From the NCBI GenBank assembly GCA_964392555.1, contig CAYMRG010000002.1, positions 1 to 33,940 of the forward strand: a stretch of DNA of 33,940 nt, given 5' to 3'. Under the pieces are notes generated by a model. It saw nothing but the letters and a program-made list of their open reading frames with translations, did not search any database and had not been told where the DNA came from. Numbering within the stretch: position 1 is the stretch's first letter; every line of letters begins with the position of its first letter. This stretch comes from an uncultured candidatus Brocadiaceae bacterium (lineage in GTDB: Bacteria; Planctomycetota; UBA1135; UBA2386). This document shows, in pieces, positions 5,219-31,535 of this stretch. The position numbers and the translations under genes were made by a program.

Positions 5219-5354
5219 CTGGGGTTCGTCCGCTAACTCGACTCACCCTGCTTCCCTTCCCTCACCCCAGCTATCGGCGCGCACGCGGCGCGAACCTGAG
5301 CCCGCCTGCGCGTCGAGGTTGCGCTGGCATGGGGCCGTGCGCGAGCATGCCGCG

Positions 5355-6131
5355 ATGCCCGGCTCCGTCCCACCCGTCACGATCGTCACCGGGAGCAGCC
5401 GCGGCATCGGCCGCGCCATCGCCGAACGCCTGGCCGCCGACGGCCACCGGCTGCTGCTGGTCGCGCGCGACGCCGAGCGGCTCGATCGGCTCGCGGCCGA
5501 GCAGCGCGGCGGCGGCGCCGCGGTGGCGACGTTCGCCGCCGACCTGCGCGACGAGGCCGCGCCAGCAGCGGCGGTGGCGGCCGCCGAACGGGCGTTCGGC
5601 GCGCCGACGGTGGTCGTCAACAACGCCGGCACCGCGCCGGCCGACAAGATCGAGAACACGACCGCCGAGGCCGCGCGCGAGACCTTCGCGCTGCACGTCG
5701 GTGCGCCGCTGGCGTTCGCGCGGGCCTGCGTGCCGGCGATGAAGCGCGCCGGCGGCGGCTGCCTGCTGCAGCTGGCCTCCACGGCCGGGCTGCGCGGCTT
5801 CCCGTTCACCGCTGCCTACACGGCTGCCAAGCACGGCATGGTCGGGCTGTCGCGCGCGCTGCACGCCGAACTGCGCCCGGCCGGCATCGCGGTCTACGCG
5901 ATCTGCCCCGGCTTCGTCGACTCCGACATCACGCGCGGCGCGGCCGCGGCGGTGGCCGCGCGCGGCCGGACCACGGCCGCGGAGGCGTTCGCCCGCATGG
6001 CGGCGCAGAACCGGATCGGGCGCATGCACACCCCGGACGAAGTCGCCGCCGCAGTGGCCGAAGTGATCCGCGACCATCCCGCGGGTTGCGTCTACGATCT
6101 CGATCGCGACCCTCCCGCGTTCGTCGACTGA
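5355..6131 (+). CDS. short-chain dehydrogenase/reductase (classical SDR)
   Basis: An internal ATG of ORF 4887..6131 gives the N-terminus MPGSVPPVTIVTGSSRGIGRAIA (TGxxxGIG). NNAG and YTAAKHG (YxxxK) motifs are present. The upstream part of the ORF is Arg/Pro-rich non-coding translation. Confidence 0.85.
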   Translation: MPGSVPPVTIVTGSSRGIGRAIAERLAADGHRLLLVARDAERLDRLAAEQRGGGAAVATFAADLRDEAAPAAAVAAAERAFGAPTVVVNNAGTAPADKIENTTAEAARETFALHVGAPLAFARACVPAMKRAGGGCLLQLASTAGLRGFPFTAAYTAAKHGMVGLSRALHAELRPAGIAVYAICPGFVDSDITRGAAAAVAARGRTTAAEAFARMAAQNRIGRMHTPDEVAAAVAEVIRDHPAGCVYDLDRDPPAFVD

Positions 6132-8263: not shown

Positions 8264-9004
8264 CTATCGCCCTTCGGGCCGCGCGTTCGAGAAGGCGACG
8301 ATCACCTTCGCCTGGTCCTCCCAGCCCTTGCCGCTCTGCGAGCCGGGCACCTCCTTCAGCACGCGCCATTCGCACGACACCATGTGGTCGCGGATCTCCG
8401 GGTTCTTCAGCACGACGCGGCGCAGCGTCTTCAGGCGCTCGATGCAGAGGTCGACCGAGGTCACCGCGCGGCCCATCTGGTTCTGACCGATCGTGACGTC
8501 GGGCATCTCGATGATCACACGGATGTCGGACGTGAACGTCAGCGAGGACACCAGCGTCTTGTCGAACCAGCCCTGCACGTCGCGCTTGATCGGGAACGGC
8601 TGCATCGGCTCGAAGAAATCCGAGAGCGGCGCCGTCAACGACACCGTGTCGTCGGTCTGCACGATCTCGAGCGAGCGGCCGGCGACCTCCTCGTACTCGG
8701 GCAGCACTTCCTTCAGGAACTCGCGCATCTCGCCGCTCTGGGCGGTGATCAGAGGCACCGCGACGGCGACGTCGCCACCGCCCTGCTGCTTGTCGAAGAT
8801 GCCGTCGTCCTTGGTCTTGCCCTCGCCGGCGATGTGGAAGGCGAACTGCACCGAGTCCTTGAGCTGCTTCAGCTTGGTCAGGTCCGCCTGCCCGAGCGCG
8901 TACAACACCACGAACAGCGCGAACAGCAGCGTCATCATGTCCGCGAAGGACACGAGCCAGCGCTCGTGGTTGACGTGCTCTTCGTGCTTGTGCTTCTTCG
9001 CCAT
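8264..9004 (-). CDS. motB: MotB-type stator subunit with a divergent OmpA-like periplasmic domain
   Basis: The N-terminal HERWLVSFADMMTLLFALFVVLYAL is the MotB TM/plug signature including the channel Asp. A GAGG SD lies 8 nt upstream. The C-terminal domain follows the OmpA-like pattern, but the motifs read IIEMPD and SVDLCIERL. Confidence 0.8.
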   Translation of the reverse strand: MAKKHKHEEHVNHERWLVSFADMMTLLFALFVVLYALGQADLTKLKQLKDSVQFAFHIAGEGKTKDDGIFDKQQGGGDVAVAVPLITAQSGEMREFLKEVLPEYEEVAGRSLEIVQTDDTVSLTAPLSDFFEPMQPFPIKRDVQGWFDKTLVSSLTFTSDIRVIIEMPDVTIGQNQMGRAVTSVDLCIERLKTLRRVVLKNPEIRDHMVSCEWRVLKEVPGSQSGKGWEDQAKVIVAFSNARPEGR

Positions 9005-9028
9005 TGGCCCGCCTCGGATGCGTCGCGA

Positions 9029-9802
9029 TCAGTGCTTCTTGTCGCCGCCACCGCCGTGGCTGCCGAGGTAGACCTTGAGGCGGCTGCGCAACGCGCCCGG
9101 CGCGACGCCGGACTGGATGCCGACCACGCCCTCCAGCACCATGCTCTTCAGCAGCTGGTCGTGCTCGATGTGGCGCTTCAGCTTGAACGACATCGGCAGG
9201 CAGACGATGTTCGCGAAACCGACGCCGTAGACCGTCGCGACGAACGCGACGGCGATGCCGGGGCCGATCAGCTTCGGCTGGTCGAGCACGCTCATCACGT
9301 GCATCAGGCCGAGCACCGCGCCGAGCACGCCGACGGTCGGCGCGAGCGCGCCCCAGCTCTCCCAGAACTTCATGCCGGCCTTGTCGTCCTCTTCCTGGAT
9401 GTGCATGTCGACCTCGACGGTCTCGCGGATCGCCTCCGCGGAGCTGCCGTCGATCGCGAGCGTCAGGCACTTGACGAGGAACGGATCGCCCTGGCCGCTG
9501 TTGGCGTAGGTCTCCAGCGCGAGCAGGCCCTCGCGGCGCGCGAGGTTCGCCAGCTCGATGACCTTCTCCATCAGGCCGTGGAAGTCGTACTTCGCCGGCA
9601 GGAAGATCCGCTTCAGCGACTTGATCGCGAACGGCACGTCCGACGGCAGCGTCGCCACCAGCGTGGCGCCGAGCGAGCCGACGATGACGATCATGAACGC
9701 CGTGACCTGCAGCAGGGCGGCGGGATGCCCGCCCTCCATGATCATGCCGCCGAGCACGCCAGTGAAAGCGAGCACGAGGCCGATGAGGCTGAAGATGTCC
9801 AT
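9029..9802 (-). CDS. motA: MotA/PomA-type stator subunit
   Basis: An internal ATG (9802) of ORF 9029..9955 gives 257 aa: MDIFSLIGLVLAFTGVLGGMIMEGG... with PTVGVLGAVLGLMHVM and GIAVAFVATVYGVGFANIVCLPMSFKL, typical of MotA TM3/TM4. Confidence 0.85.
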   Translation of the reverse strand: MDIFSLIGLVLAFTGVLGGMIMEGGHPAALLQVTAFMIVIVGSLGATLVATLPSDVPFAIKSLKRIFLPAKYDFHGLMEKVIELANLARREGLLALETYANSGQGDPFLVKCLTLAIDGSSAEAIRETVEVDMHIQEEDDKAGMKFWESWGALAPTVGVLGAVLGLMHVMSVLDQPKLIGPGIAVAFVATVYGVGFANIVCLPMSFKLKRHIEHDQLLKSMVLEGVVGIQSGVAPGALRSRLKVYLGSHGGGGDKKH

Positions 9803-9926
9803 TGCCGCGGTCTTCCCTGTCGCGATGCCGGTCGGAGATGCGCCACCCGGATGATGGTCGGAATCCGGTCCCGCTTGAGCGAGGCGACGGGAAACGCGCC
9901 AGGAATTCGTCGACTGTCGGCTTTCG

Positions 9927-10982
9927 CTACGACTCGCCGGCGACCACGCGCGCATCGGCCGCCATCACGCCGCCGCGCCGACCGCGCAGCGTCCGCCACA
10001 GCAGGCGGCAGCTTTCGCCGACGAACCAGCGCTGCCGCCACCAGATCCCCCACCAGCCGGCCCGCCGCAGCGGCCGCAAGCGGCGACGTTCGGCGAGGAT
10101 CGCCGGCAGCTCGCCCAGCGCCCGCCAGCGACCGCGGACGACCGCCCCGGCGATCGCCCGGCGGCCGGCCAGCGGCAGCAGCAGCACGACTGCCAGGTTC
10201 GACAGCACGAACCACGGCGCATTCAGCAGCACGACCGGCCACGGCAGGTTGACGAGCCACGCCCAGGTGGCGTTGCGCACCGAGCGGACGTTGAACGCGG
10301 CATCGCGGACGCGCCGGATCGTCGCGTTGAGGTGGTGGCGGACCTCGGCCCCCGGCGCGTAGCGGATCCGCCAGCCGGTGGCGACCGCGCGCAGCGACAG
10401 GTCGACGTCCTCGAAGTTGGCGAAGAAGTCGCCGCGGAACGTGCCGATCGCGCGCAGCATCGCACAGCGCAGCAGCATCGCCCCGCCGCACGCGGCCAGC
10501 AGGTCGCCGCCGTCGCCCCACCGCTCGGCCCGCTGCAGCCGCCCGCGCGGCACCACCTCGCCGTTGCCGAGCAGCCAGACGCCGGCGTTGTCGAGCAGCG
10601 CGGGCTCGGCGAACAGGCGCATGCGGCTCGCGACGATGCCGACGTGCGGTTCCGCGGCGGCGGCGAGCAGCGCCTCGAGCCAGCGCGGGTCGGCGACCGC
10701 GTCGTTGTTGAGCAGCGCGACGAACTCGCACGCGCCCTCGGCGAGCACGACGTCGAATGCGGCGTTGCAGCCGCCGGTGAAACCGAGGTTCTGCGGCAGC
10801 GCGTGCAGCCGGATCGCCGCGCCGAACTCCGCGCGCAGCGCCGCGGCCTCCTGGTTCGCCGAGCCGTTGTCGACGACGTGCAGCTCGACGTCGCGATGGG
10901 TCTGCGCGAGCAGCGAACGCACGCATTCGCGCGTCATCGCCAGACCGTTCCAGTTGAGGACGACGACCGCGATGCGCGCCAT
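9927..10982 (-). CDS. glycosyltransferase family 2 with a C-terminal membrane region
   Basis: An internal ATG at 10982 gives MARIAVVVLNWNGLAMTRECVRSLLAQT...VVDNGS...NLGFTGGCN. Its start overlaps the upstream gene's TGA by 1 nt (TGATG). Confidence 0.85.
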   Translation of the reverse strand: MARIAVVVLNWNGLAMTRECVRSLLAQTHRDVELHVVDNGSANQEAAALRAEFGAAIRLHALPQNLGFTGGCNAAFDVVLAEGACEFVALLNNDAVADPRWLEALLAAAAEPHVGIVASRMRLFAEPALLDNAGVWLLGNGEVVPRGRLQRAERWGDGGDLLAACGGAMLLRCAMLRAIGTFRGDFFANFEDVDLSLRAVATGWRIRYAPGAEVRHHLNATIRRVRDAAFNVRSVRNATWAWLVNLPWPVVLLNAPWFVLSNLAVVLLLPLAGRRAIAGAVVRGRWRALGELPAILAERRRLRPLRRAGWWGIWWRQRWFVGESCRLLWRTLRGRRGGVMAADARVVAGES

Positions 10983-12025
10983 CACGCCCCCCCGTCGGCG
11001 CCGATGCCGAAACGCACCGCACAGCGGCGACCGAGCGCGAGCGCGGCGCGGCCGGGCGGGCCGAGCCGCCACAGGGCGCGGAACGTGCGGACGTAGCCGT
11101 CGTGCCACAGTTCGGGCGCGCGATCGCGGACGAAGGCGAGCTTGTCGGCGACCGCGGCGCGGTCGCCGCGTTGCAGGTCGGCGAGCGCCTCGTGCAACAG
11201 GTTGTTGCGCAGCGCCGGGCTCGCCCGCCGACCGGGCCGCAACAGCCCGGCCGCCGCGCCCGTCGCCGCGGCCTCGCCCAGCACGGCGAGTTCCTCGGCG
11301 AACCGCGAGCGATCGGCGGTCGCACCGCGGCTCGCGGCGTCGTCGTGGCGGCGATAGTGCAGCAGCAGGTCCGGCACGTCGACGATGCCCCAGCCGGCGC
11401 GCAGCATGCGGAACCAGTACTGCCAGTCGAGCGCGAAGCGCAGATCGGTTGCAAACGGCCCGACCGCGGCCAGGGCCTCACGCCGGTACGTCACCGCCGG
11501 GCAGCAGACGAAGTTGCCGCGCCACAACCGCTGGTAGTGCGCCGCGCGATCGCGCCCCGGCGCGTGGCTCCAGAAGTGCTCCTTGAACCGCTCGGCCGGC
11601 GAGGCGATCGGCGCGCCGGCCGCGTCGATGGCGCCGGCCCGGCAGTGGGCCATGCCGGCGTCCGGCCGCGCCTCGAGCGCCGCGACCAGGCGCGCCAGGT
11701 AGTCGGGCGCGTAGACGTCGTCCTGGTGCGCGATGCAGACGAACGGCGTCGCGCTCAGCTCGACGCAGCGGTTCCAGTTGCCGCCGATGCCGCGCGCCGG
11801 CTCGTTGCGGTGGATGGCGAGCCGTTCGCCGGCCACGCGTCGCGCGCGTTCGACCGAACCGTCGCGCGACGCGTCGTCGACCAGCAGCAGCGCGAAGTCC
11901 TGGCGCGTCTGCGCGAGCAGCGACTCGAGCAGCGGCTCGAGGAACGGCCCGGCGTCGCGGCACGGGATCGCAAAGGTGACGACCGGGGCGACCACGGACC
12001 GAGCAGAGCCGCGGGCCGGGACCAC
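10982..12025 (-). CDS. glycosyltransferase family 2
   Basis: VVTFAIPCRDAGPFLEPLLESLLAQT...LLLVDDASRDGS...HQDD (DxD-type). The GTG at 12025 is the furthest start, and shorter GTG starts are possible. It lies 39 nt downstream of the protease stop. Confidence 0.85.
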   Translation of the reverse strand: MVPARGSARSVVAPVVTFAIPCRDAGPFLEPLLESLLAQTRQDFALLLVDDASRDGSVERARRVAGERLAIHRNEPARGIGGNWNRCVELSATPFVCIAHQDDVYAPDYLARLVAALEARPDAGMAHCRAGAIDAAGAPIASPAERFKEHFWSHAPGRDRAAHYQRLWRGNFVCCPAVTYRREALAAVGPFATDLRFALDWQYWFRMLRAGWGIVDVPDLLLHYRRHDDAASRGATADRSRFAEELAVLGEAAATGAAAGLLRPGRRASPALRNNLLHEALADLQRGDRAAVADKLAFVRDRAPELWHDGYVRTFRALWRLGPPGRAALALGRRCAVRFGIGADGGA

Positions 12026-12064: not shown

Positions 12065-15000
12065 TCAGCTGCCGATCTGCAGGCGCAGGCCGTTCGACGT
12101 CAGGAAGCCGAACGGGTTGGCGCCCGGCGTCAGCGTCGCGGTCTGGCTCATCACGACCACGCCGATCAGCGCCACGTTGTTCGGCACGCTGAACGGCCGC
12201 GAGCCGGTGCCGCCGGCGATCGCGATCGTGTCCATCACGTCGAGCGACTCGTAGAGCGTGCAGGTCGGCATGCCGAGGAACGCGAGATCGAGCCCCGGCG
12301 TCAGCGGCGTCGTCGACAGGATCGACAGACCGAGCAGCGTGCCGGCCGGCGCGTGGGTCGTCACGAGGCTCACCGTCGAGCCGATGTGCGGCAGACCGGC
12401 GGAGCTCAGCGTCACGTTCGGCACCGGCGGCACCGGCGTGCCGCAGACCCCGAGGCCGGCGCCGAGGCTGGTGGCGATGACGGTGCTGCCCGGATCGCTC
12501 GCGTTCGCCTTCGAGAAGCCGACCAGGTAGTTGCCGCTCACCGAGATGGTCTGGTAGAGGAAGTGCACGTCCCCGTTGGCCCAGAACTGCACCTGGAAGG
12601 TGTTCGGCGACGTCGCGGCACCGTAGTTGGGCACCGCGTTCCACGTGAACACCGCGCGGCTCGCCGTGCTGTCGAACGTCACGCTGCCACCCAGCGCCGG
12701 GTTGAGGTCGCGCCACAGCGCGCACCACATCGCGTTGGTCAGGAAGGTCGCGACCACCGGCGTGTAGTTCGCACCGCCCGTGTAGGCACCGGTCGTGAAC
12801 CAGCCGTTGCTGCACAGCAGCAGCGAGTTGGTCGTGCCGCCCGGGTACGGCAGCGAGAACGCCAGCGCCTGCGCGGCCTGCGTGTCGTCGCCGAGGGCCA
12901 GCGTCGTGCCGGCCGGCGCGATCCAGGTGCCGACGCCCGGCGTCAGCTGGTAGTTGCCGCCGCTGAAGAGCAGCGAGAACGACGTGTTGGCGAGGCTGAA
13001 CGACGGGAACTCGTAGATGCCTTCGGCGCAGCCCGGCGAACCGCCGCAGCCGGAGCCGACCGGGGAAGCCGAAGCGGCGATGCCGCCGGTGCCCTGCTGG
13101 CCGGTGCCGCCGGAGACCACGAGACCGTAGTCGGCGTCGACCTGCGGCGTCTCGACGTGGTTGTCCTGGGCGATCGACGTCGCGAGGACGTCGACGGTCC
13201 ACACACCCGCCTGCGGGTTCTGCACGAACACGCATTCGAGCGAGTTGATCGTGTCCTCGCTGCCGCCCGCCGTCGACCACATGCCGTTGGTGATGCCGTT
13301 GTTGCCGTAGTAGATCGTGCCGTTCGGCGCGGTCACGATCAGCGACAGGTTGTTGATCAGCGTCTGCGCGGCGCTCGGCACGGCGGCCGGCTCGGCCCAG
13401 TTGAGGCAGATCTTCAGATCCGGCTCACCGGCGGCGACGGTGATGTTGTGGCGGTCGTAGCTGCCTTCGGTCAGCACCGAGGTCTCGTCGACGATGTACG
13501 TCTTGGCCCGGTAGTCGTACATCCGGCGCAGGCTCGGGAAGCCGAAGCCCTGGTGTTCGCGCCGGTTGTCGGTGCTGCCCGCGTTGAAGGTGTACTGCGT
13601 CGCGCTGACGATCTCGAGCGCTTTGAGGGTCGGGAAGTGTGGCCGGTTCTGGAAGCGCGTGCCGCCCGGAACGCGCATCGGGTTGCCGAGCAGACCGACG
13701 CCCGACGTCACCTCCTGCGTGAACATCTGGATCGCGAGCACGTTGTGCCCGGCGACGATCGGCGTGGCGCCCGAGGTGCCGCCGAAGCTCGCATACCAGT
13801 TGGCCGACGAGTAGCCGGCCGCGCCGGTCAGGTCCGACGTGCCGATCGCGTCGTAGTAGGCGCACAGCTCGGGCTTCATGCGACCGTCGGCTGCCGGGCC
13901 GATGCTCGCGCCGCCCGCCGCCCACGAGTCGTTGGCGGGGTTGCTGTCGTTGAAGTGCTCGACCGCGCCGATCGAGAACACGTTCTTCGCCCAGGCCTGC
14001 GGCCGCGACGCCTGCGTGCCGGTGTTGCTCTGGCTGTTCGTCCAGGCGATGCCGTGGTCGAAGCAGATGTCGTCGGCGTCGGCCGAGACCGACGTGTACG
14101 CCGTCGTCTGCGCATCACCCCACGACGCCGTCGTGTGCACGATCTGGTGGATGTTGACCAGGTCGCTGACGACCTGCCACCGCGATGCCGTGACCGAGCT
14201 GTACTGGGTGAAGAACTTGTTGCAGTCGGGCGCCATGCCGCGCACCGCGGGGTTGCTGGTGCCGTTGCCGAACACGCAGCCGGCCGTGCAATGGCCGTGG
14301 GTGTCCGAGCCGCCACCGCTGTCGACGTTCGTCGCACCGCCGGTGAAGTCCTGGTGCGTCGCCTCGATGCCCTCGTAGATGTGGACGTTGAGGCCGGCGC
14401 CGGTGAAGCCGCCCTGCGTCTCGATGTAGTTCGCACCGCCCTGGATGCGGGCGTTGTCCATGTCCTCGCCGGTCGGCGTCCAGCGATCGACCCAGACGAC
14501 CTCGTCGAAGCCCGCGACGGCCAGCAGCTGCGGACCGGTCAGCGTGACGTCGAGCAACAGGCTGCCCTTCTGCTCGTCGTCGACGCGGCCGCCGATCGCC
14601 TTGACCTTCGCCATCAGCGCCGGCTTGTCGGTGTGCTTGTTGGCGACGACCAGGTGGTAGCGGACGGGTTCGGCCTGCAGCCAGGCCTGCGCGTCCAACA
14701 GCGCCGGCTCGAGCCGGTAGGCCGGGTGGTAGCTGCCGACCCAGCGAACCGCCGACGAAGTGCGCACGGCTTCGGCCGCGGCCACCGACATGCGGGCGAT
14801 GAAGGCGCGCTCCGGCAGGTTGCCGAGGATCTCACCACCGGCCGCGGTGATCGCATCACGGCCGAGCTGCGTCGGCACACCGCGCAACTGGACGATCCAG
14901 AGGCCGCTCGCGTTGAGGCTGCGCAGGATCGGCGTCACTTCGGGTTCGGCGACGAGCGGATCGAAGGTCCCGTATTGCAGTTTGATCAGGGACGCGTCCG

Positions 15001-15088
15001 CCCGCGGAGTCGGGGCGGGTGCCTGGGCGTAGACGGCCGCGGATACAGCGCAACCGAGCAGGGCGCCGAGAGAGCGGGGGCTGAGCAT
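12065..15088 (-). CDS. secreted subtilisin-like (S8) peptidase: propeptide, catalytic domain, P-domain-like beta sandwich, C-terminal surface module
   Basis: An internal ATG at 15088 (GAGGA SD) gives 1007 aa with signal peptide MLSPRSLGALLGCAVSAAVYA. Motifs DTHGHCTAG (His), NSQSNTG (Asn) and FGGTSGATPIVAG (Ser) are present. The P-domain-like stretch reads LNWAEP...INNLSLIVTAPNG...GVWTVDV...YGLVVSG. The upstream 222 codons of ORF 12065..15754 are rejected as non-coding. Confidence 0.85.
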   Translation of the reverse strand: MLSPRSLGALLGCAVSAAVYAQAPAPTPRADASLIKLQYGTFDPLVAEPEVTPILRSLNASGLWIVQLRGVPTQLGRDAITAAGGEILGNLPERAFIARMSVAAAEAVRTSSAVRWVGSYHPAYRLEPALLDAQAWLQAEPVRYHLVVANKHTDKPALMAKVKAIGGRVDDEQKGSLLLDVTLTGPQLLAVAGFDEVVWVDRWTPTGEDMDNARIQGGANYIETQGGFTGAGLNVHIYEGIEATHQDFTGGATNVDSGGGSDTHGHCTAGCVFGNGTSNPAVRGMAPDCNKFFTQYSSVTASRWQVVSDLVNIHQIVHTTASWGDAQTTAYTSVSADADDICFDHGIAWTNSQSNTGTQASRPQAWAKNVFSIGAVEHFNDSNPANDSWAAGGASIGPAADGRMKPELCAYYDAIGTSDLTGAAGYSSANWYASFGGTSGATPIVAGHNVLAIQMFTQEVTSGVGLLGNPMRVPGGTRFQNRPHFPTLKALEIVSATQYTFNAGSTDNRREHQGFGFPSLRRMYDYRAKTYIVDETSVLTEGSYDRHNITVAAGEPDLKICLNWAEPAAVPSAAQTLINNLSLIVTAPNGTIYYGNNGITNGMWSTAGGSEDTINSLECVFVQNPQAGVWTVDVLATSIAQDNHVETPQVDADYGLVVSGGTGQQGTGGIAASASPVGSGCGGSPGCAEGIYEFPSFSLANTSFSLLFSGGNYQLTPGVGTWIAPAGTTLALGDDTQAAQALAFSLPYPGGTTNSLLLCSNGWFTTGAYTGGANYTPVVATFLTNAMWCALWRDLNPALGGSVTFDSTASRAVFTWNAVPNYGAATSPNTFQVQFWANGDVHFLYQTISVSGNYLVGFSKANASDPGSTVIATSLGAGLGVCGTPVPPVPNVTLSSAGLPHIGSTVSLVTTHAPAGTLLGLSILSTTPLTPGLDLAFLGMPTCTLYESLDVMDTIAIAGGTGSRPFSVPNNVALIGVVVMSQTATLTPGANPFGFLTSNGLRLQIGS

Positions 15089-15308
15089 GGGTTCCTCGTG
15101 GGGGAGGGATGGGTTGGAGACAGGTCGAGGGAGCGTAGCGAGGCTGCGAGGCTCGTTGGCGACGGCGCACCGCAAAGGCCGAGAATTTTGAAACCCTTCG
15201 CCAGCCTGCCGACGGGCCAGTGCCGACAGCCCGCACGTTTTCCATCGCCAGTCCCCCCTCCCGTTCTTCCCCCAGCGTGCGACACTCCAACCTCCGCCGA
15301 GGAACCGA

Positions 15309-16955
15309 ATGCGTGCCTTCCTACCGACTGCTTCCATCCTCACGCTGAGCGCCTGCGCGCTCGGCCAGATCCAGATCATCCACCCGAGCATGCTGCCCGG
15401 CGAAGAGATGATCCCGTGGCCCGCGGCCGTCGGCAGCGCGCCGACCAAGTTGCTGCCGATGGTCTGGCACAACCTCGACTTCGTCGCGGCCATCGGCTTG
15501 CACCTCGGCGAGGCCGGGCTGGTGCACGCCCCGGCCATCACCCACGCCATCGAGCCGTTGGCCCTTGGCTTCACGGCCGTCGACGGAATCGTGCTGGATG
15601 CCGGCGACGACCGACGCGACACACTGCTGGTCTCGGCGATGAGCGGCACGGAACTCCGCCTGGTCGGATCGGACGCGAACGGCGACACGGTCGTCGCGCC
15701 ACTGCCGCACACCGGCTGGTTGCGGGCCAACCTGATGTCCTCGTCGGCCGACACGACGGGTACGGAGATCCTGGCGCGGTCGCGTTCGAGTTACTCGCTG
15801 CTGCGCATGCGCTTCGACAACGCCTCGTCGACGTTCGCCGATTGGCCGACGCTCACCCTGCCGGAGCCGATCCTCGATCTCTGCCTGACCGATTACGATG
15901 GCGTCGGGGCGCTCGATACCGCCGTGCTGACGGCGACCTCGCTGACGGTCTACGACGCCATCGGCAACACCCTCGGCTCGATGCCGATCGCCGCGGGAAT
16001 CGAGGCCCTCGCCGTCGAACCCACGCCCGCGCCGGGTCAGTCGGGCGCCGTGACCGTGCTGCAACGCACGGCCTCCGGAACGCTGGAACTGGTGTACTTC
16101 GCCAACGGTGTCGCGGAGGTGCCCGCCGCCGTGTCGTTCGACACCTTCGGTTCCACCAACGTCCGCCTCGTCTCGGGCGACTTCAACGGCGACGGCTCGA
16201 CCGACCTCGCCCTGCAGAACGGCGGCAACAAGCTGCGCATCGTCGCCAACGGCACCGAGAACCCACACTACTTCTATGCCGACGAGATCCCGCTGATGAC
16301 CATCGGCAACCAGGGTGGCACGCAGGGCAACGCGAGCGTCGGCGACTACGACCTGGATGGCGTCGTCGACCTGCTGGTGCCGATCACGGCGTCCGGCGCG
16401 ACCTACCTGGTGCTCGAGACCGGACTGGTGCCGCAGCTGCAGCAACTCGCCCCGCCGCTCTACGGCTGCAACATCGACAAGTGCTGGCAGTACCTCGGCA
16501 ACCCCGACCGTCTCGACTGGCAGTTCGACGTCAGCCCCGGTCTCGCAGCGGAGTTTCCGTCGGCGAAGCTGACCCTCTACTGGGCCCACGACAGCGCGGG
16601 GCTCGGCACGACCTCCTTCGCCACCCCGGTCACCGCGACGGCCTTGAACACCGTCGACTTCACCTGCAGCACCTCGATCGCCGACTCCCTGATCGAGCGG
16701 CCGAACGCGTTCTTCGCCACGCTGCAGTTCTCGTACGGCGCGAAGAAGGGGCCGACGTTCCGGATCGCCGGCACGGCCGACCCGAACTACGACGCGACGG
16801 CCAACCCGCCGATGACCATGAACACCGGCTGGTACATCCCGCAGTACGGCACCGGCCCCGACCGCGAGCTGCGGCGCGAGGAGGGTCAGCCGCACGGTCG
16901 CAAGGTGATCGGTCTCGTCACCTATACGTCGAGCCTGCCGATCTGGATCCAGTAG
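15309..16955 (+). CDS. FG-GAP/VCBS repeat protein, probable lipoprotein
   Basis: ATG with a GAGGA SD. The N-terminus MRAFLPTASILTLSAC ends in a lipobox (L-S-A-C). Repeats GDFNGDGSTDLAL and GDYDLDGVVDLLV are FG-GAP Ca-binding-type motifs. Confidence 0.8.
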   Translation: MRAFLPTASILTLSACALGQIQIIHPSMLPGEEMIPWPAAVGSAPTKLLPMVWHNLDFVAAIGLHLGEAGLVHAPAITHAIEPLALGFTAVDGIVLDAGDDRRDTLLVSAMSGTELRLVGSDANGDTVVAPLPHTGWLRANLMSSSADTTGTEILARSRSSYSLLRMRFDNASSTFADWPTLTLPEPILDLCLTDYDGVGALDTAVLTATSLTVYDAIGNTLGSMPIAAGIEALAVEPTPAPGQSGAVTVLQRTASGTLELVYFANGVAEVPAAVSFDTFGSTNVRLVSGDFNGDGSTDLALQNGGNKLRIVANGTENPHYFYADEIPLMTIGNQGGTQGNASVGDYDLDGVVDLLVPITASGATYLVLETGLVPQLQQLAPPLYGCNIDKCWQYLGNPDRLDWQFDVSPGLAAEFPSAKLTLYWAHDSAGLGTTSFATPVTATALNTVDFTCSTSIADSLIERPNAFFATLQFSYGAKKGPTFRIAGTADPNYDATANPPMTMNTGWYIPQYGTGPDRELRREEGQPHGRKVIGLVTYTSSLPIWIQ

Positions 16956-19416
16956 CGCGCGCGGCGCCCTGCCCGCAGCCCTGCACCTGCAGCACGCCGG
17001 TGCGCCAGACGTCGAGCGGATCGCTGTCGCTGTTGGCGGCGGCGCGCGCACGGCGCAGCGACTCCGCCGGCGAGTCGCCCTGCGCCAGGGCGGCGAGCAG
17101 ATCGACCAGCAGCGTGCGCACCCGGTGCAGCGGCAGCGCGAACCGCGATTGGACGACCGCCGTGGCGCCGCCGAGCAGGAAGGCGCCGCCGAGATTGGCC
17201 GGGCTGTCGCCGCTGCGATCGGGGCCCTTGGCCAGCCGACAGCCGGCGAGCACGACGAGGTCGGCCAGCGGCAGACCCGCCCGATCGCGCGCTTCGGCGC
17301 GGGCACAGTCGAGCTCGCCGTCGACGAACTGCAGGAAGCTGCCGCGCTCGTTCGCGGCGTTGTAGCCGCCGTGGCCGACGAACACGCCGATCGTGCCGTG
17401 TGCGCGCGGTGCCGCGAGGCTGGCCAGCGTGCACGCCATGTCGACGAACTGCCGCCGATCCGCGAACCCGACGCCGACATCGTCCAGCCAAGCCGACAGT
17501 CGATCGGCCTCGGGAAGGGCGAGGACGGGCTGCGCACCGGGCGGCGCCAGACAGCCATAGAGGCGCAGCCGCGACGTCTGGTCGAAGTGCAGATCGCGCC
17601 GGCGCAGCGCGCTCCAGGCCGGCAGCGACGCGGCGTGGTCGAGCGCGAACCGCTGCCCCCACAGGCGGTCGTCCTCCCACGGCAGGCAATCGACCGGCAG
17701 GTAGTTGAGGTAGCCGGCATCGGCGCCGCCGGCGATCGGTCCGTGCAGCAGTTCGCCGCAGACCACCGTGAGCTGGTGCAGCGGCTCGAGGTCGGCGCGC
17801 AGCGCAGGCGGCACCAACAGGTCGGCGAGGGTCTGACCGCACTGTCGCAACCGCGCAGCGAGAGCCTTCGCCGCTTCGGCCGACCCGTCGATGCCCTCGG
17901 TCGCTTCGCGCAGCGCGTCGAGGAACGTCTGCACGGTCGCACGCATGCCCATGCCGCTGACGGCGAGCAGATGGTGGTGCAGGGCCCGCGCCGTGGCGAC
18001 GAACACGTGCGTGCCATGTCGCACCGGCAGGAACACGACGACGCCCTGGTCGGGCAGGAGCTGCGCCTGCAGATCGGCCAGGCTCGGCACGCTCGCGCCC
18101 AAGGCCCGCGCCAGCGAGCCGTGCACCTGGGCGCGCAGTACGCATTCGAACGCCTCGGCGACGGCCGCGGCGCGCCCCGCGGCCGTGTCCGGCGCCGCCG
18201 CCAGCGTCACGGCGATCGCCTGACCGATCACCTCGCGCCGTTCGAAGTAGTGCAGGAAGCCGACCCCGCCCGCCCGCACCGGCGTGCGGGCCCACGCCGT
18301 CAGCACCTCGTCGAGCGCGGCGAGCTGGGCGCCCTTCTGCGCCTGCAGGGCGGCCGGGGTGCGCGCCTCGGGTGCGGCTGCGTCGAGCAGGATCCGGGTC
18401 GCGAGCGTCGTCGCGTTCGGGTCCTCGGTGCCGTTGGTGCGCAGCGTCGCAAGCGCCTGACTCGCCGCGTCGATGCCCTCGCGTTCGGCCGCGAGTTCGA
18501 TCAGTCGGGTCTGCGCGAAGCGCGCCATCGCACCCGAACCGTGCCCGGCGCAGTCGCGCAACGTCGCCAGGAACGGCGGTGGCTCGGCATCGGCACCGCC
18601 GACCCACGACTCCGCCATCGCCAGGTAGAAGTCGCAGGCCGCCGGATCGAACCCGTTGGTCACGGCGAAGTCGCGTGCGGCCCTCGCCTCGACGACCGCC
18701 TTGGCGAAGTTCTCGAGACCGAGGTGACAGTCGACGCGGCACAGGTGGTAGCGCAGGACCGCGTCGCGCCAGATCCGCTCGAAGGCGTCCTTGGCGGCGC
18801 CGGCGAATGCGGGCGGCGCGCCGACCAGCTCGCGCGCGCGGCGCAGACGCGCCACGACCGCATCCGGATTGCCGAGGAACATCTCGAGCGTCGCCTTCGC
18901 GCACTCGAACTTCAGCGCGGCGATCGCCAGCATCGCGCGACCGTTGTCGCTTTCCTGCCAACCCTGCCAGCGCGGCGAACCGACGAGCTGCGCGAAGTAG
19001 TCGAGCGTCACATCGGCGGCCGCGAGGTCGTCGGCGAGCCGGTAGGCATCGGCGAGCGTGAACGCCAGGTCACAGATGCGCAGGCCGCAGCGGTCGCGCA
19101 GGTCCCACACCGGCTCAAGCACGGCGATGACGTCGCGGGGTCGATCGCCGCGGACCAGGGCCATGGCACCGTACTGCTGCGCCACCGCCGCGGCGAAGCC
19201 ACAGGCTTCGACCTCGCCATGCGGTTCGGCGGCGAAGCGCAGACAGGCATCGATGGCCACCTGCATCGCCTCGACGTTCGCGCGACTCGACAGCGCAATG
19301 ACGATGTCGCGTTGCGCGACCCAATCCGGTGCTGCGAGCGCACGGCTGCGAAGCTGGTCGAGCGAGAGCGCGGCCAACGCCGGGTCCGGCGCCTGCTGCG
19401 CGGGCAACGCCAGCAC
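16918..19416 (-). CDS. CHAT-domain (caspase-fold Cys protease) protein with an N-terminal TPR-like helical region
   Basis: The C-terminal region has the CHAT dyad context: IGVFVGHGGYN (His codon 17371-17373) and DLVVLAGCRLA (Cys codon 17239-17241). About 500 aa of helical repeats lie upstream. The start is ambiguous: GTG 19416 is the first start not overlapping the anti-sigma gene, while TTG 19515 would add a signal-peptide-like N-terminus. The track start 19581 is a TTG in a low-GC3 stretch. Confidence 0.8.
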   Translation of the reverse strand: MLALPAQQAPDPALAALSLDQLRSRALAAPDWVAQRDIVIALSSRANVEAMQVAIDACLRFAAEPHGEVEACGFAAAVAQQYGAMALVRGDRPRDVIAVLEPVWDLRDRCGLRICDLAFTLADAYRLADDLAAADVTLDYFAQLVGSPRWQGWQESDNGRAMLAIAALKFECAKATLEMFLGNPDAVVARLRRARELVGAPPAFAGAAKDAFERIWRDAVLRYHLCRVDCHLGLENFAKAVVEARAARDFAVTNGFDPAACDFYLAMAESWVGGADAEPPPFLATLRDCAGHGSGAMARFAQTRLIELAAEREGIDAASQALATLRTNGTEDPNATTLATRILLDAAAPEARTPAALQAQKGAQLAALDEVLTAWARTPVRAGGVGFLHYFERREVIGQAIAVTLAAAPDTAAGRAAAVAEAFECVLRAQVHGSLARALGASVPSLADLQAQLLPDQGVVVFLPVRHGTHVFVATARALHHHLLAVSGMGMRATVQTFLDALREATEGIDGSAEAAKALAARLRQCGQTLADLLVPPALRADLEPLHQLTVVCGELLHGPIAGGADAGYLNYLPVDCLPWEDDRLWGQRFALDHAASLPAWSALRRRDLHFDQTSRLRLYGCLAPPGAQPVLALPEADRLSAWLDDVGVGFADRRQFVDMACTLASLAAPRAHGTIGVFVGHGGYNAANERGSFLQFVDGELDCARAEARDRAGLPLADLVVLAGCRLAKGPDRSGDSPANLGGAFLLGGATAVVQSRFALPLHRVRTLLVDLLAALAQGDSPAESLRRARAAANSDSDPLDVWRTGVLQVQGCGQGAARATGSRSAGSTYR

Positions 19417-19424
19417 GGTGATCG

Positions 19425-20174
19425 CTAGCGCGACAGCGTGAACGAGACCGGTTCGCTGACCGTGCGTTCGCCCCCCGCCGGCGCGGCCGGACGGGTCTCG
19501 TAGTACCAGACCCAATGCACGGACTCGTCTCGCATGGTCTTCACGAGGGATGGCTCCGGCTGCCACTGGTTGGTCGCGCAAGGGAAACTCTGCTCGTCGA
19601 GCGGGTTCCCGTCAGCGTAGAGGTGGACGACGTAGCTGTCGCCCGGGCGACCCGGCCAGGTGAAGGGTCTGGTCAGGATCGCGTCGCCGACGTCGCCCGA
19701 CGGCCACGGCTTGTCCGCCTGGGTTCCCAGGGTCCGGTCCGCCGGGAGCGCAGGCCGTTCGCGCGGCGAGCGCCACAGCAGGAGCGTCAGCAGCGCCACG
19801 GCCGCCAGCGCGATCGCCGGCAGCAACCACCAGCGCCTCCCCGGCCGCGGCTGACCCGGCCGAGCTGGCCCCGACAACGTCGGACCCGACCGTGACGGTG
19901 CAGTCGGCGCCGCACCGCCCGGCAGGTTCGCGCGCACCAGCGAAGCGACCAGGTCCTCGCCGGCAGCGCCGCGCAACCGACTCGCCGACGCGAGCACCGC
20001 GCGTTGTTCGTCGCCCAGCCGCGACAGGTCGGCGGCGACCGCTCGCATCTCGAGCAGGCGAACGCGGCAGATCGGGCAGGCTTCGAGCTCGCGAGCCGCC
20101 GGATCCTGGGCCGGCTGGTCGCTCGTCCACAGAGCCTCGAGCAGACGTTCGTGTCTCGGATCTCGGCAGGTCAT
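19425..20174 (-). CDS. membrane anti-sigma factor (zf-HC2-like N-terminus, one TM, ~105-aa extracytoplasmic domain)
   Basis: The ATG at 20174 overlaps the sigma gene stop (ATGA). The N-terminus is MTCRDPRHERLLEAL...ELEACPICRVRL (Cys/His plus CxxC). The TM segment is WWLLPAIALAAVALLTLLLW. Position immediately after an ECF sigma gene supports the call. Confidence 0.75.
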   Translation of the reverse strand: MTCRDPRHERLLEALWTSDQPAQDPAARELEACPICRVRLLEMRAVAADLSRLGDEQRAVLASASRLRGAAGEDLVASLVRANLPGGAAPTAPSRSGPTLSGPARPGQPRPGRRWWLLPAIALAAVALLTLLLWRSPRERPALPADRTLGTQADKPWPSGDVGDAILTRPFTWPGRPGDSYVVHLYADGNPLDEQSFPCATNQWQPEPSLVKTMRDESVHWVWYYETRPAAPAGGERTVSEPVSFTLSR

Positions 20175-20878
20175 GCGTCTCCGTCCTCGCGTCGGCGAAA
20201 CGTCCGCAGGAGTTCGCAGAAGCGCAAAAATCCACGGTAGTAGCGCGTCTTGGCGGTGTTGACGGCCATGCCGCAGCGCGCGGCGATCTCGAGGAACGTC
20301 AGTCCCTCGATGTCCTTCAGTCGGATCAGCTCCGCCTCGACGCCGCCGAGTCGGTCGAGACCCCGCACCACTTCCTCGTGGGCGCTGGATCTCGTCGCAT
20401 CGTCCGGCGCCGGGACGACCGCGTCGTCGCCGAGCGGCGTCAGCAGCTGCGCGCGCCGGGAGCGGCGGCGGACCGCGTTCAGGTACTCGAACTCGCACAG
20501 GCGGTAGATCCAGCCTTCGAGCGGGCACCACGCCTCGAATTCGTGCAGCTTGCGCAGCGCGATCAGCAGCGTGTCGTGCGTCAGGTCGAGGATCTCCTCC
20601 TCGGCCAGCTGCAGGCCGCGCCGCCGGTTCAGGGCGTGGAGGATCCGCGGCACGCAGTGCATGCGCTCCTCGAACTTCACGCGCGCCTCCCGATCACCGC
20701 CCAGCACGGCGGCGAGGAACGCCAGCTCGGCGGCGCGATCGAAGGGTTCGGGGTCGGGCAGAGGCAGCGTGGACACGGCGCGGAACCGGGCCACCGGCTC
20801 GGTCGCCACACTGTAGCGAGGCCTCGGCCGGCGCCTGGATCCGTCTCGGGTGCAAGGGTCCGAACTGGGCATGGGCAT
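20171..20878 (-). CDS. ECF-type RNA polymerase sigma-70 family factor
   Basis: Region 2-like (AEEEILDLTHDTLLIAL...EGWIYRLCEFEYLNAVRRR) and region 4 HTH (EAELIRLKDIEGLTFLEIAARCGMAVNTAKTRYYRG). The start is uncertain. ATGs occur at 20878 and 20872, a GTG lies further in, and the ORF stays open to ATG 21079. Confidence 0.8.
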   Translation of the reverse strand: MPMPSSDPCTRDGSRRRPRPRYSVATEPVARFRAVSTLPLPDPEPFDRAAELAFLAAVLGGDREARVKFEERMHCVPRILHALNRRRGLQLAEEEILDLTHDTLLIALRKLHEFEAWCPLEGWIYRLCEFEYLNAVRRRSRRAQLLTPLGDDAVVPAPDDATRSSAHEEVVRGLDRLGGVEAELIRLKDIEGLTFLEIAARCGMAVNTAKTRYYRGFLRFCELLRTFRRREDGDA

Positions 20879-21150
20879 GACGCGCTGATGGCGTGTCTGC
20901 ACCGCGTCCGGGCCACCCCGGAGGTTGCAAAAATCCGCTCGGTCAGGGCCCGGCACCCGATCCGGCCCGAGCGGCGTGGCACGGGGGCCGAAGCAGTCCT
21001 CGGCGGCGATGCGGCCGCCGACCAGCCAGACGGTCCACGGAACGTAGGGAGTTGCATTGCGGGGTCCCGCGACGCGCATTCGGCGCGCCGCCCCGAAGCG
21101 TTCCGGGCCGCTGACCCGGCCTCAGAATTCCCGCCGCAGGCCTCGCGCCG

Positions 21151-21888
21151 TCACGCGCGCGCCGACGGATCGTCGTTGCGTCGCCGCCAGTCGTCGGGCC
21201 ACGACCGCTCGCGCAACTGCCGTTCGACGACGGCGAGGTAGGCGCGCAGCTGCTTGTCGGGCTCGTCGGCGAACGTGTCGAGCGCTTCGACCACCGTCAG
21301 CCGATCGGCGCGGAACGTGCGGAAGTCGCCGCGCAGTTCGCACCAGGCGCCGAGCGTCCAGACCATGCCCCAGAAGGTCAGGCACAGCGGCCGCAGCACG
21401 CGCTCGCTCGCTTCGCCGGTCGCGTCGACGTAGCGCACGCGCAACCGCTGCCGGCCGTCGACCGCAGCGCGCACCCGTTCGATCGTCGCGCGCACATCGG
21501 GGCAGATCGCCGCCGGCACGTTGAGCTCGGCCCGCGCGAAGCCCGCCGCGAGCCGCGGCGGCACCACCAGCTCGACCTTGGCGAGCAGGCTGCGGGCGCG
21601 CGCGGCGAGCCGTTCGTCGGCGAATGCCTGCACCATGCGCGCACCGAGCACCAGCGCGTCGATCTCGCCGGCGTCGAACATCAGCGGCGGCAGGTCGAAG
21701 CCGCGCTGCAGGCAGTAGCCGACGCCGGCCTCACCTTCGATCGGCACGCCGCTGCCGATCAGGTCCTGCACGTCGCGGTAGACGGTGCGCAGGGAGATCT
21801 CGAGCTCGTCGGCGATCGCGCGCGCCGTCAGCACGCGGTTGGTGCGCAGCAGCTGGACGATCTGGAACAGTCGGTCGGCGCGGCGCAT
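21151..21888 (-). CDS. YafY-family transcriptional regulator (HTH plus WYL domain)
   Basis: The ATG at 21888 gives the typical N-terminus MRRADRLFQIVQLLR. The WYL-domain stretch reads RLRVRYVDATGEASERVLRPLCLTFWGMVWTLGAWCELRGDFRTFRADRL. The track start 21903 is a TTG. Confidence 0.9.
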   Translation of the reverse strand: MRRADRLFQIVQLLRTNRVLTARAIADELEISLRTVYRDVQDLIGSGVPIEGEAGVGYCLQRGFDLPPLMFDAGEIDALVLGARMVQAFADERLAARARSLLAKVELVVPPRLAAGFARAELNVPAAICPDVRATIERVRAAVDGRQRLRVRYVDATGEASERVLRPLCLTFWGMVWTLGAWCELRGDFRTFRADRLTVVEALDTFADEPDKQLRAYLAVVERQLRERSWPDDWRRRNDDPSARA

Positions 21889-21921
21889 GGAACCAGCCGG
21901 CAACGGTAGCGAGCGGCGCGA

Positions 21922-22425
21922 TCAGCTCCACTCGGCGACGTCGGCGGTCGGCCCGTAGGTCGGCGGCACGATCGCGCCGCACAGCCGCAGGTAGACCTGC
22001 AGCTGGCCGCGGTGCTGGATGACGTGGTTCAGCAGCGTCGTCCGCATGACCTCGTCGCGGCGCCCCTTCATCAGCTCCTGGTCGCCTTTGCGGGCCGTCC
22101 ACGTGCCGCGCATCAGCCGATCGTCGAAACCGGCCAGCGCCTCGCGCGCCGCGGCCATGTGGCGATCGAGCCCGGCGAGCAGTTCGGCCGTGGTCTTGGC
22201 GGTGAACGGCTGGTAGTCGCCCATCGCCGCGAAGTCCATCGAGTCCTCGCGCCAGGCCGGGATCCACGACGGCGCGTCGACGATGTGGCCGGCCAGCTGG
22301 CCGAGCGTCCAGGACCTGGGATGCGGGCGGAAGTCGAACTTGCCGTCCGGGATGGCGGCGAGGGTCTTGCGGGTGAGCGCGGCTTCGCGCTCGAGATCGG
22401 CGAGCAGATCGCTGGCGATGGTCAT
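21922..22425 (-). CDS. DinB-family (DinB_2-like) four-helix-bundle protein
   Basis: MTIASDLLADLEREAALTRKTLAAIPDGKFDFRPHPRSWTLGQLAGHI, 167 aa. It ends 33 nt upstream of the preferred YafY start at 21888 (18 nt from the alternative TTG start at 21903). Confidence 0.8.
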   Translation of the reverse strand: MTIASDLLADLEREAALTRKTLAAIPDGKFDFRPHPRSWTLGQLAGHIVDAPSWIPAWREDSMDFAAMGDYQPFTAKTTAELLAGLDRHMAAAREALAGFDDRLMRGTWTARKGDQELMKGRRDEVMRTTLLNHVIQHRGQLQVYLRLCGAIVPPTYGPTADVAEWS

Positions 22426-24031: not shown

Positions 24032-24115
24032 GTCCTGCGGCCACAACCAAAGGTTGTGCGGCGCTGCGCGCCGCCAGAAGAGGCCGCAGGGGCGCTGCGG
24101 TCTCCAGGGGCGACT

Positions 24116-24173
24116 ACTACTCCCGCTCGCCAACGGCGAATCCGCTCGCCAGGCGAGGAAACGCGGGAGTAGT
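24116..24173. other. 58-nt inverted-repeat element able to fold as a three-way junction
   Basis: A perfect 11-bp outer stem, actactcccgc (24116-24126) with gcgggagtagt (24163-24173), encloses two small hairpins. These are tcgcc-aac-ggcga (24127-24139) and ctcg-ccagg-cgag (24145-24157). The element ends 17 nt before ATG 24190. Confidence 0.3.
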
Positions 24174-24189
24174 CGATCAGCGATCCTTG

Positions 24190-24930
24190 ATGTACCACCG
24201 GCCGTCGACCAGCTTGAGCTTCAGCTCGCTCGGTCCCTCGCCACTCGTGTTTGCCCACGAGACCTGGTCACGCGCCTCGTTCCAGGTAGGCTCCCGCTTC
24301 GCCTACGTGACGTGGGACGCCGTCTTCGACTACGGCACCACCACGCCGGAGACGATGCAGTACCAGTTCGACCTCGCGACCGGCGTCGTGACGATGATCT
24401 GGCAGAGCATCACCGGCCAGGGCAACGACTACCTGGTCGGCTTCTCGCCGGGCGGCCCGTCGATCGACCCGGGCTCGACGGACCTCTCCGTCACCCTGCC
24501 GACCACGATCCTGCTCGGCGCGGACTACCAGGCGCTCACCCTGTCGGCCTCGCCGGTGGCGATCTCCACGGCGACCTCCGGTTCGACCGTCACCTACACC
24601 ACCGACAACATGCTGGCCTTCGCGCCGGGCGTCTACATCGGCATGAACATCCTCAGCATGTCGCAGATCCCGGCTCCGGGCGTCGACCTCGTGATCATCG
24701 GCGCGCCGGGTTGCGCGGCGCTGGTCGGCTCGATCGACCTGCCCCAGACGATGGTCGGCACCACCCCGACGCAGTCGGTCAGCCTGACGCTGCCGCCGGG
24801 CATCCCGGCCGGCACGACGATCTACTCGCAGTCGGTGTCGCTGTTCCAGCCGAACACCCTCCCGGGCGGTCTGAACAGCTTCGGCATGACCACCAGCAAC
24901 GGCATCGCCTCGGTCATCAGCACCCACTGA
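24190..24930 (+). CDS. 5'-truncated paralogue of the protease C-terminal surface module (possible gene remnant or pseudogene)
   Basis: The 246-aa ORF aligns by eye with residues ~791-1007 of the S8 protease: NDYLVGFSPGGPSIDPGST vs GNYLVGFSKANASDPGST, IIGAPGCAALVGSID vs FLGMPTCTLYESLD, and TTSNGIASVI vs LTSNGLRLQI. It has no signal peptide and no SD. GC3 is poor for the first ~30 codons and gene-like from ~24290 onward. Confidence 0.6.
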   Translation: MYHRPSTSLSFSSLGPSPLVFAHETWSRASFQVGSRFAYVTWDAVFDYGTTTPETMQYQFDLATGVVTMIWQSITGQGNDYLVGFSPGGPSIDPGSTDLSVTLPTTILLGADYQALTLSASPVAISTATSGSTVTYTTDNMLAFAPGVYIGMNILSMSQIPAPGVDLVIIGAPGCAALVGSIDLPQTMVGTTPTQSVSLTLPPGIPAGTTIYSQSVSLFQPNTLPGGLNSFGMTTSNGIASVISTH

Positions 24931-31534: not shown

Positions 31535-31535
31535 G

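Follow-up and report, generated by a model that had tools for sequence, protein, structure and literature searches.

In the sigma-E system of Escherichia coli, the anti-sigma factor RseA is cleaved by DegS and then by RseP. Here we describe a cassette of four genes for a sigma factor of the extracytoplasmic function (ECF) type, a membrane anti-sigma factor, a putative TPR-CHAT cysteine protease and an FG-GAP beta-propeller protein. It lies on a 33,940 bp stretch (G+C ~71%) of contig CAYMRG010000002.1 from an uncultured candidatus Brocadiaceae bacterium, referred to below as the window. Several described systems join TPR-CHAT or CHAT proteins to sigma factors. The anti-sigma factor DdvA of Myxococcus xanthus crosses the membrane once and combines a zinc three-helix cytoplasmic domain with a periplasmic TPR-CHAT part of ~900 residues carrying a His/Cys dyad (PMC11506125; for DdvA-DdvS see also PMC6061681 and PDB entries 8rot and 8rw5). 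When the TPR-CHAT part is removed, DdvA is exposed to RseP (PMC11506125). The authors propose that a signal induces the CHAT domain to cut the juxtamembrane linker of DdvA by autoproteolysis as the site-1 step; they state that this is unproven and that it cannot be tested before the signal is known (PMC11506125). Fused DdvA-like proteins were reported from Myxococcota and one Comamonas only (PMC11506125). For Csx29, the TPR-CHAT protease of type III-E CRISPR systems, cleavage of Csx30 was shown; Csx30 binds an ECF-type sigma factor (CASP-sigma) as its inhibitor, and the cleavage relieves the inhibition (PMC10028731). In Haliangium ochraceum, a sigma factor is among the substrates of a SAVED-CHAT/PCaspase cascade (bioRxiv 10.1101/2023.06.23.546230). 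An earlier sequence-only reading of the window knew of no mechanistic description of such a module, a statement that these three systems render outdated.

Comparison with these systems places the cassette as a split, four-gene, planctomycetal and non-defence form of an already known TPR-CHAT/ECF sigma/inhibitor system. Like DdvA-DdvS, it has an ECF sigma gene followed by that of a single-pass anti-sigma factor whose cytoplasmic domain has a candidate Cys/His zinc site, a TPR-CHAT part with a His/Cys dyad that is predicted on the periplasmic side, and a flexible linker after the membrane helix. In contrast to DdvA-DdvS, anti-sigma factor and TPR-CHAT protein are encoded by separate genes in 11/11 lineages, the anti-sigma factor has a small outside domain of its own, an FG-GAP gene is always attached, and the cassette occurs in Planctomycetota without a CBASS or CRISPR neighbourhood. 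With craspase it shares a TPR-CHAT protease encoded together with an ECF-type sigma factor and an inhibitor. Craspase, however, works in the cytoplasm, in complex with Cas7-11 and upon activation by target RNA, whereas the cassette protease is predicted to be exported, and Csx30 is not a membrane anti-sigma factor of the zinc-associated (ZAS) type. The proposed logic resembles that of RseA/DegS/RseP, with a periplasmic site-1 cut of a single-pass anti-sigma factor, a site-2 cut, sigma release and autoregulation; unlike DegS, a PDZ serine protease encoded elsewhere, the candidate here is a caspase-fold cysteine protease from the same operon. The SAVED-CHAT cascade likewise ties a CHAT-family protease to a sigma factor gene and uses proteolysis as a signalling step, but it is cytoplasmic and activated by cyclic oligoadenylate via SAVED, and its CHAT protein cleaves a second protease rather than an anti-sigma factor. 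Separase shares the architecture of helical repeats plus caspase fold and is a specific switch protease inhibited by a partner, securin, yet it is a much larger, eukaryotic protein with cohesin as its target and no membrane or sigma context. A literature search retrieved no paper that brings FG-GAP together with a CHAT domain and a sigma factor, and the main text of the ECF classification (PMC7826278) mentions neither CHAT nor FG-GAP.

The sigma, anti-sigma and TPR-CHAT genes lie on the minus strand, tightly packed head to tail. The sigma gene (20171..20878) encodes 235 aa from ATG 20878. Its open reading frame (ORF) reaches 21079, but ATG 20878 is most likely the start, because promoter-like sites fall between 20878 and 21079. 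Stop of sigma and start of anti-sigma share the ATGA at 20171-20174. The anti-sigma gene (19425..20174, 249 aa) ends with a TAG at 19425-19427. The CHAT ORF is open over 16918-19581; the database annotation starts it at GTG 19416, 8 nt beyond this TAG, giving 832 aa. The further in-frame starts TTG 19515, GTG 19566 and TTG 19581 all overlap the anti-sigma gene. Most likely TTG 19515 is used, which would add a signal peptide and result in a protein of 865 aa (16918..19515, minus strand). The FG-GAP gene (15309..16955, plus strand) is convergent with the CHAT gene, and their 3' ends overlap by 38 nt; its product of 548 aa is predicted to be exported, with an LSAC lipoprotein-like signal. All coordinates, ORFs and junctions given by the sequence-only reading (the ATGA, the 8-nt gap and the overlapping CHAT start) hold, and so do the tail-to-tail overlap of FG-GAP with CHAT and the divergent position of a neighbouring S8 protease gene.

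The arrangement was followed into other genomes. Loci were tested with hidden Markov models built from our own alignments against the six-frame ORFs of all loci. The order sigma, anti-sigma, CHAT and convergent FG-GAP was found in 11/11 sampled lineages, with no exception as far as the contigs reach, although between lineages the identity of the cassette proteins is no more than 19-37%. The four distant CHAT homologues that were found first (26-29% identity) already had sigma, anti-sigma and CHAT genes, and FG-GAP wherever the contig reaches it. In every lineage the anti-sigma gene is directly upstream of CHAT and sigma is upstream wherever the contig allows; sigma homologues occupy the equivalent position in 10 loci. 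An FG-GAP homologue follows right after CHAT, in convergent orientation, in every lineage whose contig extends there. The junctions are also kept: the start-stop overlap of sigma and anti-sigma is present in 5/5 loci checked, as ATGA or TTGA, and the CHAT gene begins at most 8 nt after the anti-sigma gene or overlaps it. Sampling from the CHAT side and from the anti-sigma side recovered the same cassette. One locus found via the anti-sigma factor (L014) holds the full tetrad. In the eleventh lineage (L013) the contig ends ~125 codons into the ORF after anti-sigma, and this stub consists of a signal peptide and helical, TPR-like repeats. A genome scan from CHAT gave only Planctomycetota metagenome-assembled genomes among the matches listed (at least 3 loci), every related genome record is such a genome, and a metagenome scan added at least 3 further loci.

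Since it is present in every related locus examined, the sigma/anti-sigma/CHAT arrangement is far beyond chance. The sequence-only reading had taken the three genes for a unit and CHAT for a dedicated partner of the sigma/anti-sigma pair; the first claim was borne out by the recurrence of the triad in all 11 lineages sampled, and the second is supported as well. The conserved functional unit is larger, comprising four genes with FG-GAP included. The flanking genes vary by locus (Dus, methyltransferase, M16 peptidase, RHS toxin and others), and thus define the boundaries of the cassette. The S8 gene was rejected as a cassette part, as it is without homologue in the other loci. Of the setting that the sequence-only reading had described, with FG-GAP and S8, only FG-GAP is therefore a constant element. 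An upstream WYL regulator and a DinB gene were rejected as well, not being conserved in other loci. A defence-system reading was also discarded: in PADLOC there was no match for the cassette proteins and no Cas match, no CRISPR array was found at the locus, and the neighbours are housekeeping genes. Individual loci had peculiarities of their own. In L011 the FG-GAP homologue (3694-5755, minus strand) is split over three reading frames, which could be a pseudogene or an assembly error. Beside the cassette, L013 has a second ECF sigma gene overlapping a Ser/Thr kinase gene (586-2636, minus strand), and L014 has a large RHS/YD-repeat toxin gene (8928-11339, plus strand).

The CHAT domain (PF12770) scores 60.4 bits against a cut-off of 24 (E 2.6e-16, profile positions 2-270 of 289), with a Pfam envelope of aa 558-831 (17023..17844, minus strand). 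The catalytic residues are predicted to be His715 (17371-17373) in the context VFVGHGGYN and Cys759 (17239-17241) in VLAGCRLA, numbered from TTG 19515. The TPR-like region (18061..19383, aa ~45-485) is all-helical in an AlphaFold2 (AF2) model of moderate confidence (pLDDT 68.5, pTM 0.68), and the family profile matches consensus TPR proteins (1.6e-18). A word-indexed search detected 5 close relatives only, and it was an exhaustive profile search that revealed the family: at E<=1e-30 it comprises 1084 representatives, each standing for a 50%-identity cluster. Of these, the best 150 all have E<1e-105, and most of them are near full-length, with 700-960 residues. In an alignment of 153 representatives that are mutually <50% identical, His715 and Cys759 are invariant (153/153), and Arg767 and Gly769 are conserved in 152/153. 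When aligned with 19 unrelated TPR-CHAT proteins, Cys759 remained invariant and His715 was at least 90% conserved. An invariant dyad across representatives this divergent argues that catalysis is under selection, and the CHAT protein is probably an active protease. The intact dyad and the TPR-like N-terminal half had both been read from the sequence; the quoted contexts exist, both residues align at the CHAT family positions, and the repeat assignment agrees with the profile and the helical model.

Fusion to an anti-sigma factor was not seen in this family. An isolated N-terminal CxxC is present in 1/153 representatives (P0164) and an anti-sigma-type zinc motif in 0/153, and therefore the family is not fused to anti-sigma in the manner of DdvA. 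A fused zf-HC2-CHAT protein (P0014) was observed on a short contig, where the upstream ORF has a weak sigma-like match only. Foldseek searches with the CHAT model returned Csx29 as best structural match (5e-11), DdvA (7.6e-10) and separase, in a range from 5e-11 to 9e-7. Among these top matches DdvA has the highest sequence identity, at 15-16%; SAVED-CHAT is a much weaker structural match (1.6e-3). The active site of DdvA CHAT lacks the three-helix motif of separase and craspase. Searches of the PDB with the sequence and with 5- and 60-sequence CHAT profiles gave TPR proteins only and no CHAT-containing structure, and no sequence similarity to DdvA was detectable. Hence the kinship to DdvA, Csx29 and separase is visible at the fold level only.

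The anti-sigma factor carries C3, H8 and C33xxC36 at its N-terminus, and H8, C33 and C36 are invariant in an alignment of five homologues. The spacing, H-x24-CxxC with an extra C/H upstream, is closer to the CHCC arrangement described for DdvA than to H-x3-C-x2-C. A profile gave a weak match to the ZAS domain of RslA (3hug_B, E=0.15) at the CxxC helix; a relaxed-threshold Pfam search with the five homologues returned nothing relevant. AF2 predicts N-terminal helices at 6-17, 25-32, 34-67 and 73-83 with pLDDT ~90. A single transmembrane (TM) helix, found in all homologues, spans aa 115-134 (19773-19832). The outside part has 115 residues. It comprises a linker for which disorder is predicted (136-175, pLDDT <50) and then a small beta domain that reaches the C-terminus; the best fold E for this domain was 0.39, to Ig-like or RhoGDI-like sandwiches. 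The sole conserved feature of the linker is Leu149-Gly150 (19725-19730), kept in 11/12 sequences. The Cys/His-CxxC terminus and the one TM helix of the sequence-only reading thus stand; for the ~105 outside residues that it gave, the count here is 115. In L008 (~3940-4600, plus strand) an anti-sigma homologue is without the CxxC cysteines and has RRRRAEL instead, so that the zinc site is not universal in the family.

The sigma factor belongs by sequence to the ECF (group IV) sigma-70 factors, as the sequence-only reading had assigned it. Sigma70_r4_2 is matched with 32.9 bits (cut-off 25.7), Sigma70_r2 with 21.4 bits, just under its cut-off of 24, and TIGR02937 with 37.6, below 42.9; there are full-length matches to many ECF models of NCBIfam. 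A five-sequence profile matches the structures of SigE, RpoE and SigH over positions 7-190 (best E 3e-16). In all loci the sigma factors have a conserved segment R-[LM]-x-C-[VI]-P-[RH]-x-L-x-x-x-N-x-R before the region 2 residues (in the window 20600-20690, minus strand). To our knowledge this segment is atypical among ECF sigma factors, and it may be a signature of the group.

Signal peptides and membrane anchors point to a periplasmic location of the TPR-CHAT protein. With the start at TTG 19515, the sequence reads Arg-rich, then LVHAVALAITVLAL, then ALPA/QQ, which has the form of a classical signal peptide. It is predicted to cover aa 1-39 (19399..19515, minus strand), ending with GLVHAVALAITVLALPA before QQ, and overlaps the 3' end of the anti-sigma gene. 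Signal peptides are clear at the N-terminus of the CHAT homologues P0003 and P0005, and for those of L001 and L003 an equivalent hydrophobic segment appears once the ORF is extended upstream in frame. A C-terminal TM anchor followed by an Arg-rich tail is present in 79/153 representatives, from which it follows that the bulk of the protein must be outside. The protease would therefore share its side of the membrane with the 115-residue outside part of the anti-sigma factor, which makes an action on that domain topologically possible. Export had escaped the sequence-only reading. The FG-GAP protein matches FG-GAP_3 with 30.6 bits (Pfam cut-off 26.9), and signal peptides are found in its homologues.

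Upstream of the sigma operon a candidate ECF-type promoter was identified at 20906..20932 (minus strand), consisting of the -35-like TTTTGCAACC, 14 nt and a -10-like GAC core. Upstream of FG-GAP a candidate of the same type, TTTTGAAACC with 15 nt and GAC, lies at 15186..15213 (plus strand), and a second, weaker match, GCAACT-N14-GAC, precedes sigma at 21033..21055 (minus strand). The string TTTTG[AC]AACC occurs twice in the window, at 20932(-) and 15186(+), where 0.02 would be expected, and each time C[GC]GACG follows after 12-13 nt. The generalised motif [AG][ACG]AAC[CT]-N14-15-GAC is present in 10/14 regions upstream of sigma or FG-GAP across lineages, with equivalent sites before the FG-GAP genes of L001, L003, L007 and L010. 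In shuffled sequence the corresponding count was 0.47 on average and 4 at most (2000 trials), although these statistics are inflated, since the motif was defined post hoc, at first by eye and partly from the tested sites. In 254 kb of locus sequence (both strands) there were 24 matches, ~11 of them within ~5 kb of upstream regions, and in the window 5, of which 3 are in the sigma and FG-GAP intergenic regions. Two chance-looking matches are inside a sigma-fusion gene of the window (28589-31042). An exact two-block search produced GC-rich noise only, and neither a sigma-70-type promoter nor an intrinsic terminator was found in 14900-22000. The pattern looks like that expected for an autoregulated ECF operon plus a regulon gene. 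In L009 the standard motif is absent upstream of FG-GAP; instead of a single promoter-like site, T(A/T)GA(A)TCGAACGTCGG is repeated three times within ~60 nt with short variable gaps (~10340-10400, minus strand).

Based on these observations, we tentatively favour a split DdvA-like switch, to which we would give nearly an even chance. The single-pass anti-sigma factor would bind the sigma factor of its cassette and hold it at the membrane by its zinc-type cytoplasmic domain. The next gene of the operon would supply a catalytically competent TPR-CHAT cysteine protease for export to the periplasm, where about half of the family would be tethered by the C-terminal anchor. Upon an envelope signal, CHAT would use the anti-sigma factor as substrate and cut its disordered periplasmic linker in trans as the site-1 step, the conserved Leu-Gly ~15 residues past the membrane being the candidate cut region. 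The stub would then undergo RseP-type intramembrane proteolysis, and the freed sigma factor would transcribe its own operon and the convergent FG-GAP gene from the matching ECF-type promoters. FG-GAP would be at least an output, and may feed back on the protease as sensor, inhibitor or substrate. Cleavage in trans is the most economical scheme because it accounts for the invariant dyad, the matching topology and the disordered linker with its Leu-Gly, and has a precedent in Csx29.

Several points weigh against this scheme. Site-1 cleavage by CHAT is a hypothesis only in DdvA itself (PMC11506125). The anti-sigma factor has no Pfam or NCBIfam match, including zf-HC2, one of the models that the sequence-only reading had named for checking, and its outside domain was modelled at low confidence, with no significant fold match. 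The CHAT protein of the window is without the C-terminal anchor, its signal peptide requires translation to begin at an upstream TTG, which is not the start in the database annotation, and near the catalytic Cys its sequence differs from the consensus of the family (CRLAKGPDRSGDS vs CGAARGPLRRGDD). The promoter motif, besides its post hoc definition, is absent in 4/14 regions. Genomic context was checked for 11 of >1000 CHAT family clusters. Finally, sharing a transcript with sigma and anti-sigma would fit an output of the sigma factor just as well. With these points taken into account, we infer that CHAT starts the proteolysis of the anti-sigma factor, as the best-supported reading of the data.

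This last point leads to a different explanation, in which CHAT and FG-GAP are both outputs. Sigma and anti-sigma would sense stress in a conventional way and induce an exported protease and propeller, by which envelope or foreign proteins are remodelled or degraded, and the protease may mature the propeller. The location of CHAT in an autoregulated operon and the shared promoter motif of FG-GAP would make both sigma-induced, both are predicted to be exported, and they are always adjacent and convergent. Genes of an ECF regulon are, however, usually less rigidly linked, whereas CHAT stays directly after anti-sigma, often overlapping it, across lineages that are ~25% identical. The characterised TPR-CHAT proteases, separase and Csx29, are highly specific switches and not bulk proteases, and in DdvA the TPR-CHAT part is physically joined to the anti-sigma factor. 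We therefore hold this explanation to be unlikely, if still a serious competitor. Trans cleavage of the anti-sigma factor by CHAT would also be bypassed if the non-catalytic properties of the protein mattered instead. As a co-anti-sigma factor or shield, comparable to RseB or to the periplasmic domain of DdvA, it would bind the outside domain of the anti-sigma factor and keep site-1 or site-2 proteases away until displaced by a ligand. TPR arrays are indeed protein-binding modules and the TPR-CHAT part of DdvA does block RseP cleavage, but a dyad invariant in 153/153 with conserved neighbouring residues is hard to explain without catalysis. Owing to this invariant active site, the shield is the one rival that is clearly disfavoured, and we rate it as very improbable.

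The propeller offers a further possibility. FG-GAP could be the regulatory substrate or partner of CHAT, in the way of securin and separase, and the anti-sigma factor would be affected indirectly, for example by binding either of them. In the cassette, FG-GAP is kept no less strictly than the anti-sigma factor, separase as a structural relative is governed by a bound inhibitor, and the tail-to-tail junction with its 38-nt overlap couples the expression of both genes. As a replacement for cleavage of the anti-sigma factor this seems quite unlikely; it is, though, compatible with the split switch rather than exclusive of it. Both can be joined in a more far-reaching proposal, which we consider possible but doubtful. 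Here a free-standing, periplasmic, caspase-like site-1 protease would act together with a co-evolving FG-GAP protein as ligand sensor or securin-like inhibitor. The cassette would then be a widespread separase-type envelope switch of Planctomycetota, unrelated to phage defence, and an ancestral or split form of DdvA.

Other parts of the window contain features outside the cassette. Directly upstream of sigma and on the same strand are the HTH-WYL regulator and the DinB-family gene (21151-22425, minus strand); this regulator is a strong match to CRISPR-associated WYL models (PADLOC, 5e-58). The S8 protease gene, divergent from FG-GAP, likely starts at ATG 15088 (minus strand), and Peptidase_S8 is above the Pfam threshold. 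A domain in the C-terminal ~200 residues of its product (12065-12700, minus strand) recurs in a small ORF at a distance of 9 kb (24100-24930, plus strand; 36% identity, E 1e-18). This domain has the motifs YLVGFS...DPGST and a terminal TSNG[IL], is without Pfam match and may serve in sorting or anchoring. The gene at 28589-31042 (plus strand) encodes 817 aa, with an N-terminal ECF sigma core (Sigma70_r2, r4_2), hydrophobic segments and a long C-terminus with Big_1/MG4 and CarboxypepD_reg-like domains; it has the appearance of a sigma factor with a membrane-spanning, extracytoplasmic extension fused to it. At 31471-31550, in the stretch that separates this gene from a PyrK-like gene (3' end), are ~5 tandem copies of the 16-nt unit GCCAGGAAACCAGTTC; the GGAAACC within each copy is similar to the -35-like element of the cassette promoters.

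In the cassette the two halves of DdvA are encoded separately, with the small outside domain of the anti-sigma factor and an obligatory FG-GAP protein in addition. As the CHAT protease and the substrate presumed for it are two different chains, cleavage is directly testable, and the unproven site-1 idea for DdvA becomes a two-protein assay. FG-GAP is a fourth obligatory partner, and the candidate promoter motif is usable for mapping the regulon. The CHAT family is large, its active site is invariant, and in every case checked it is linked to a sigma/anti-sigma pair. The link between TPR-CHAT proteins and ECF sigma/anti-sigma pairs thus extends past defence islands and past the Myxococcota.

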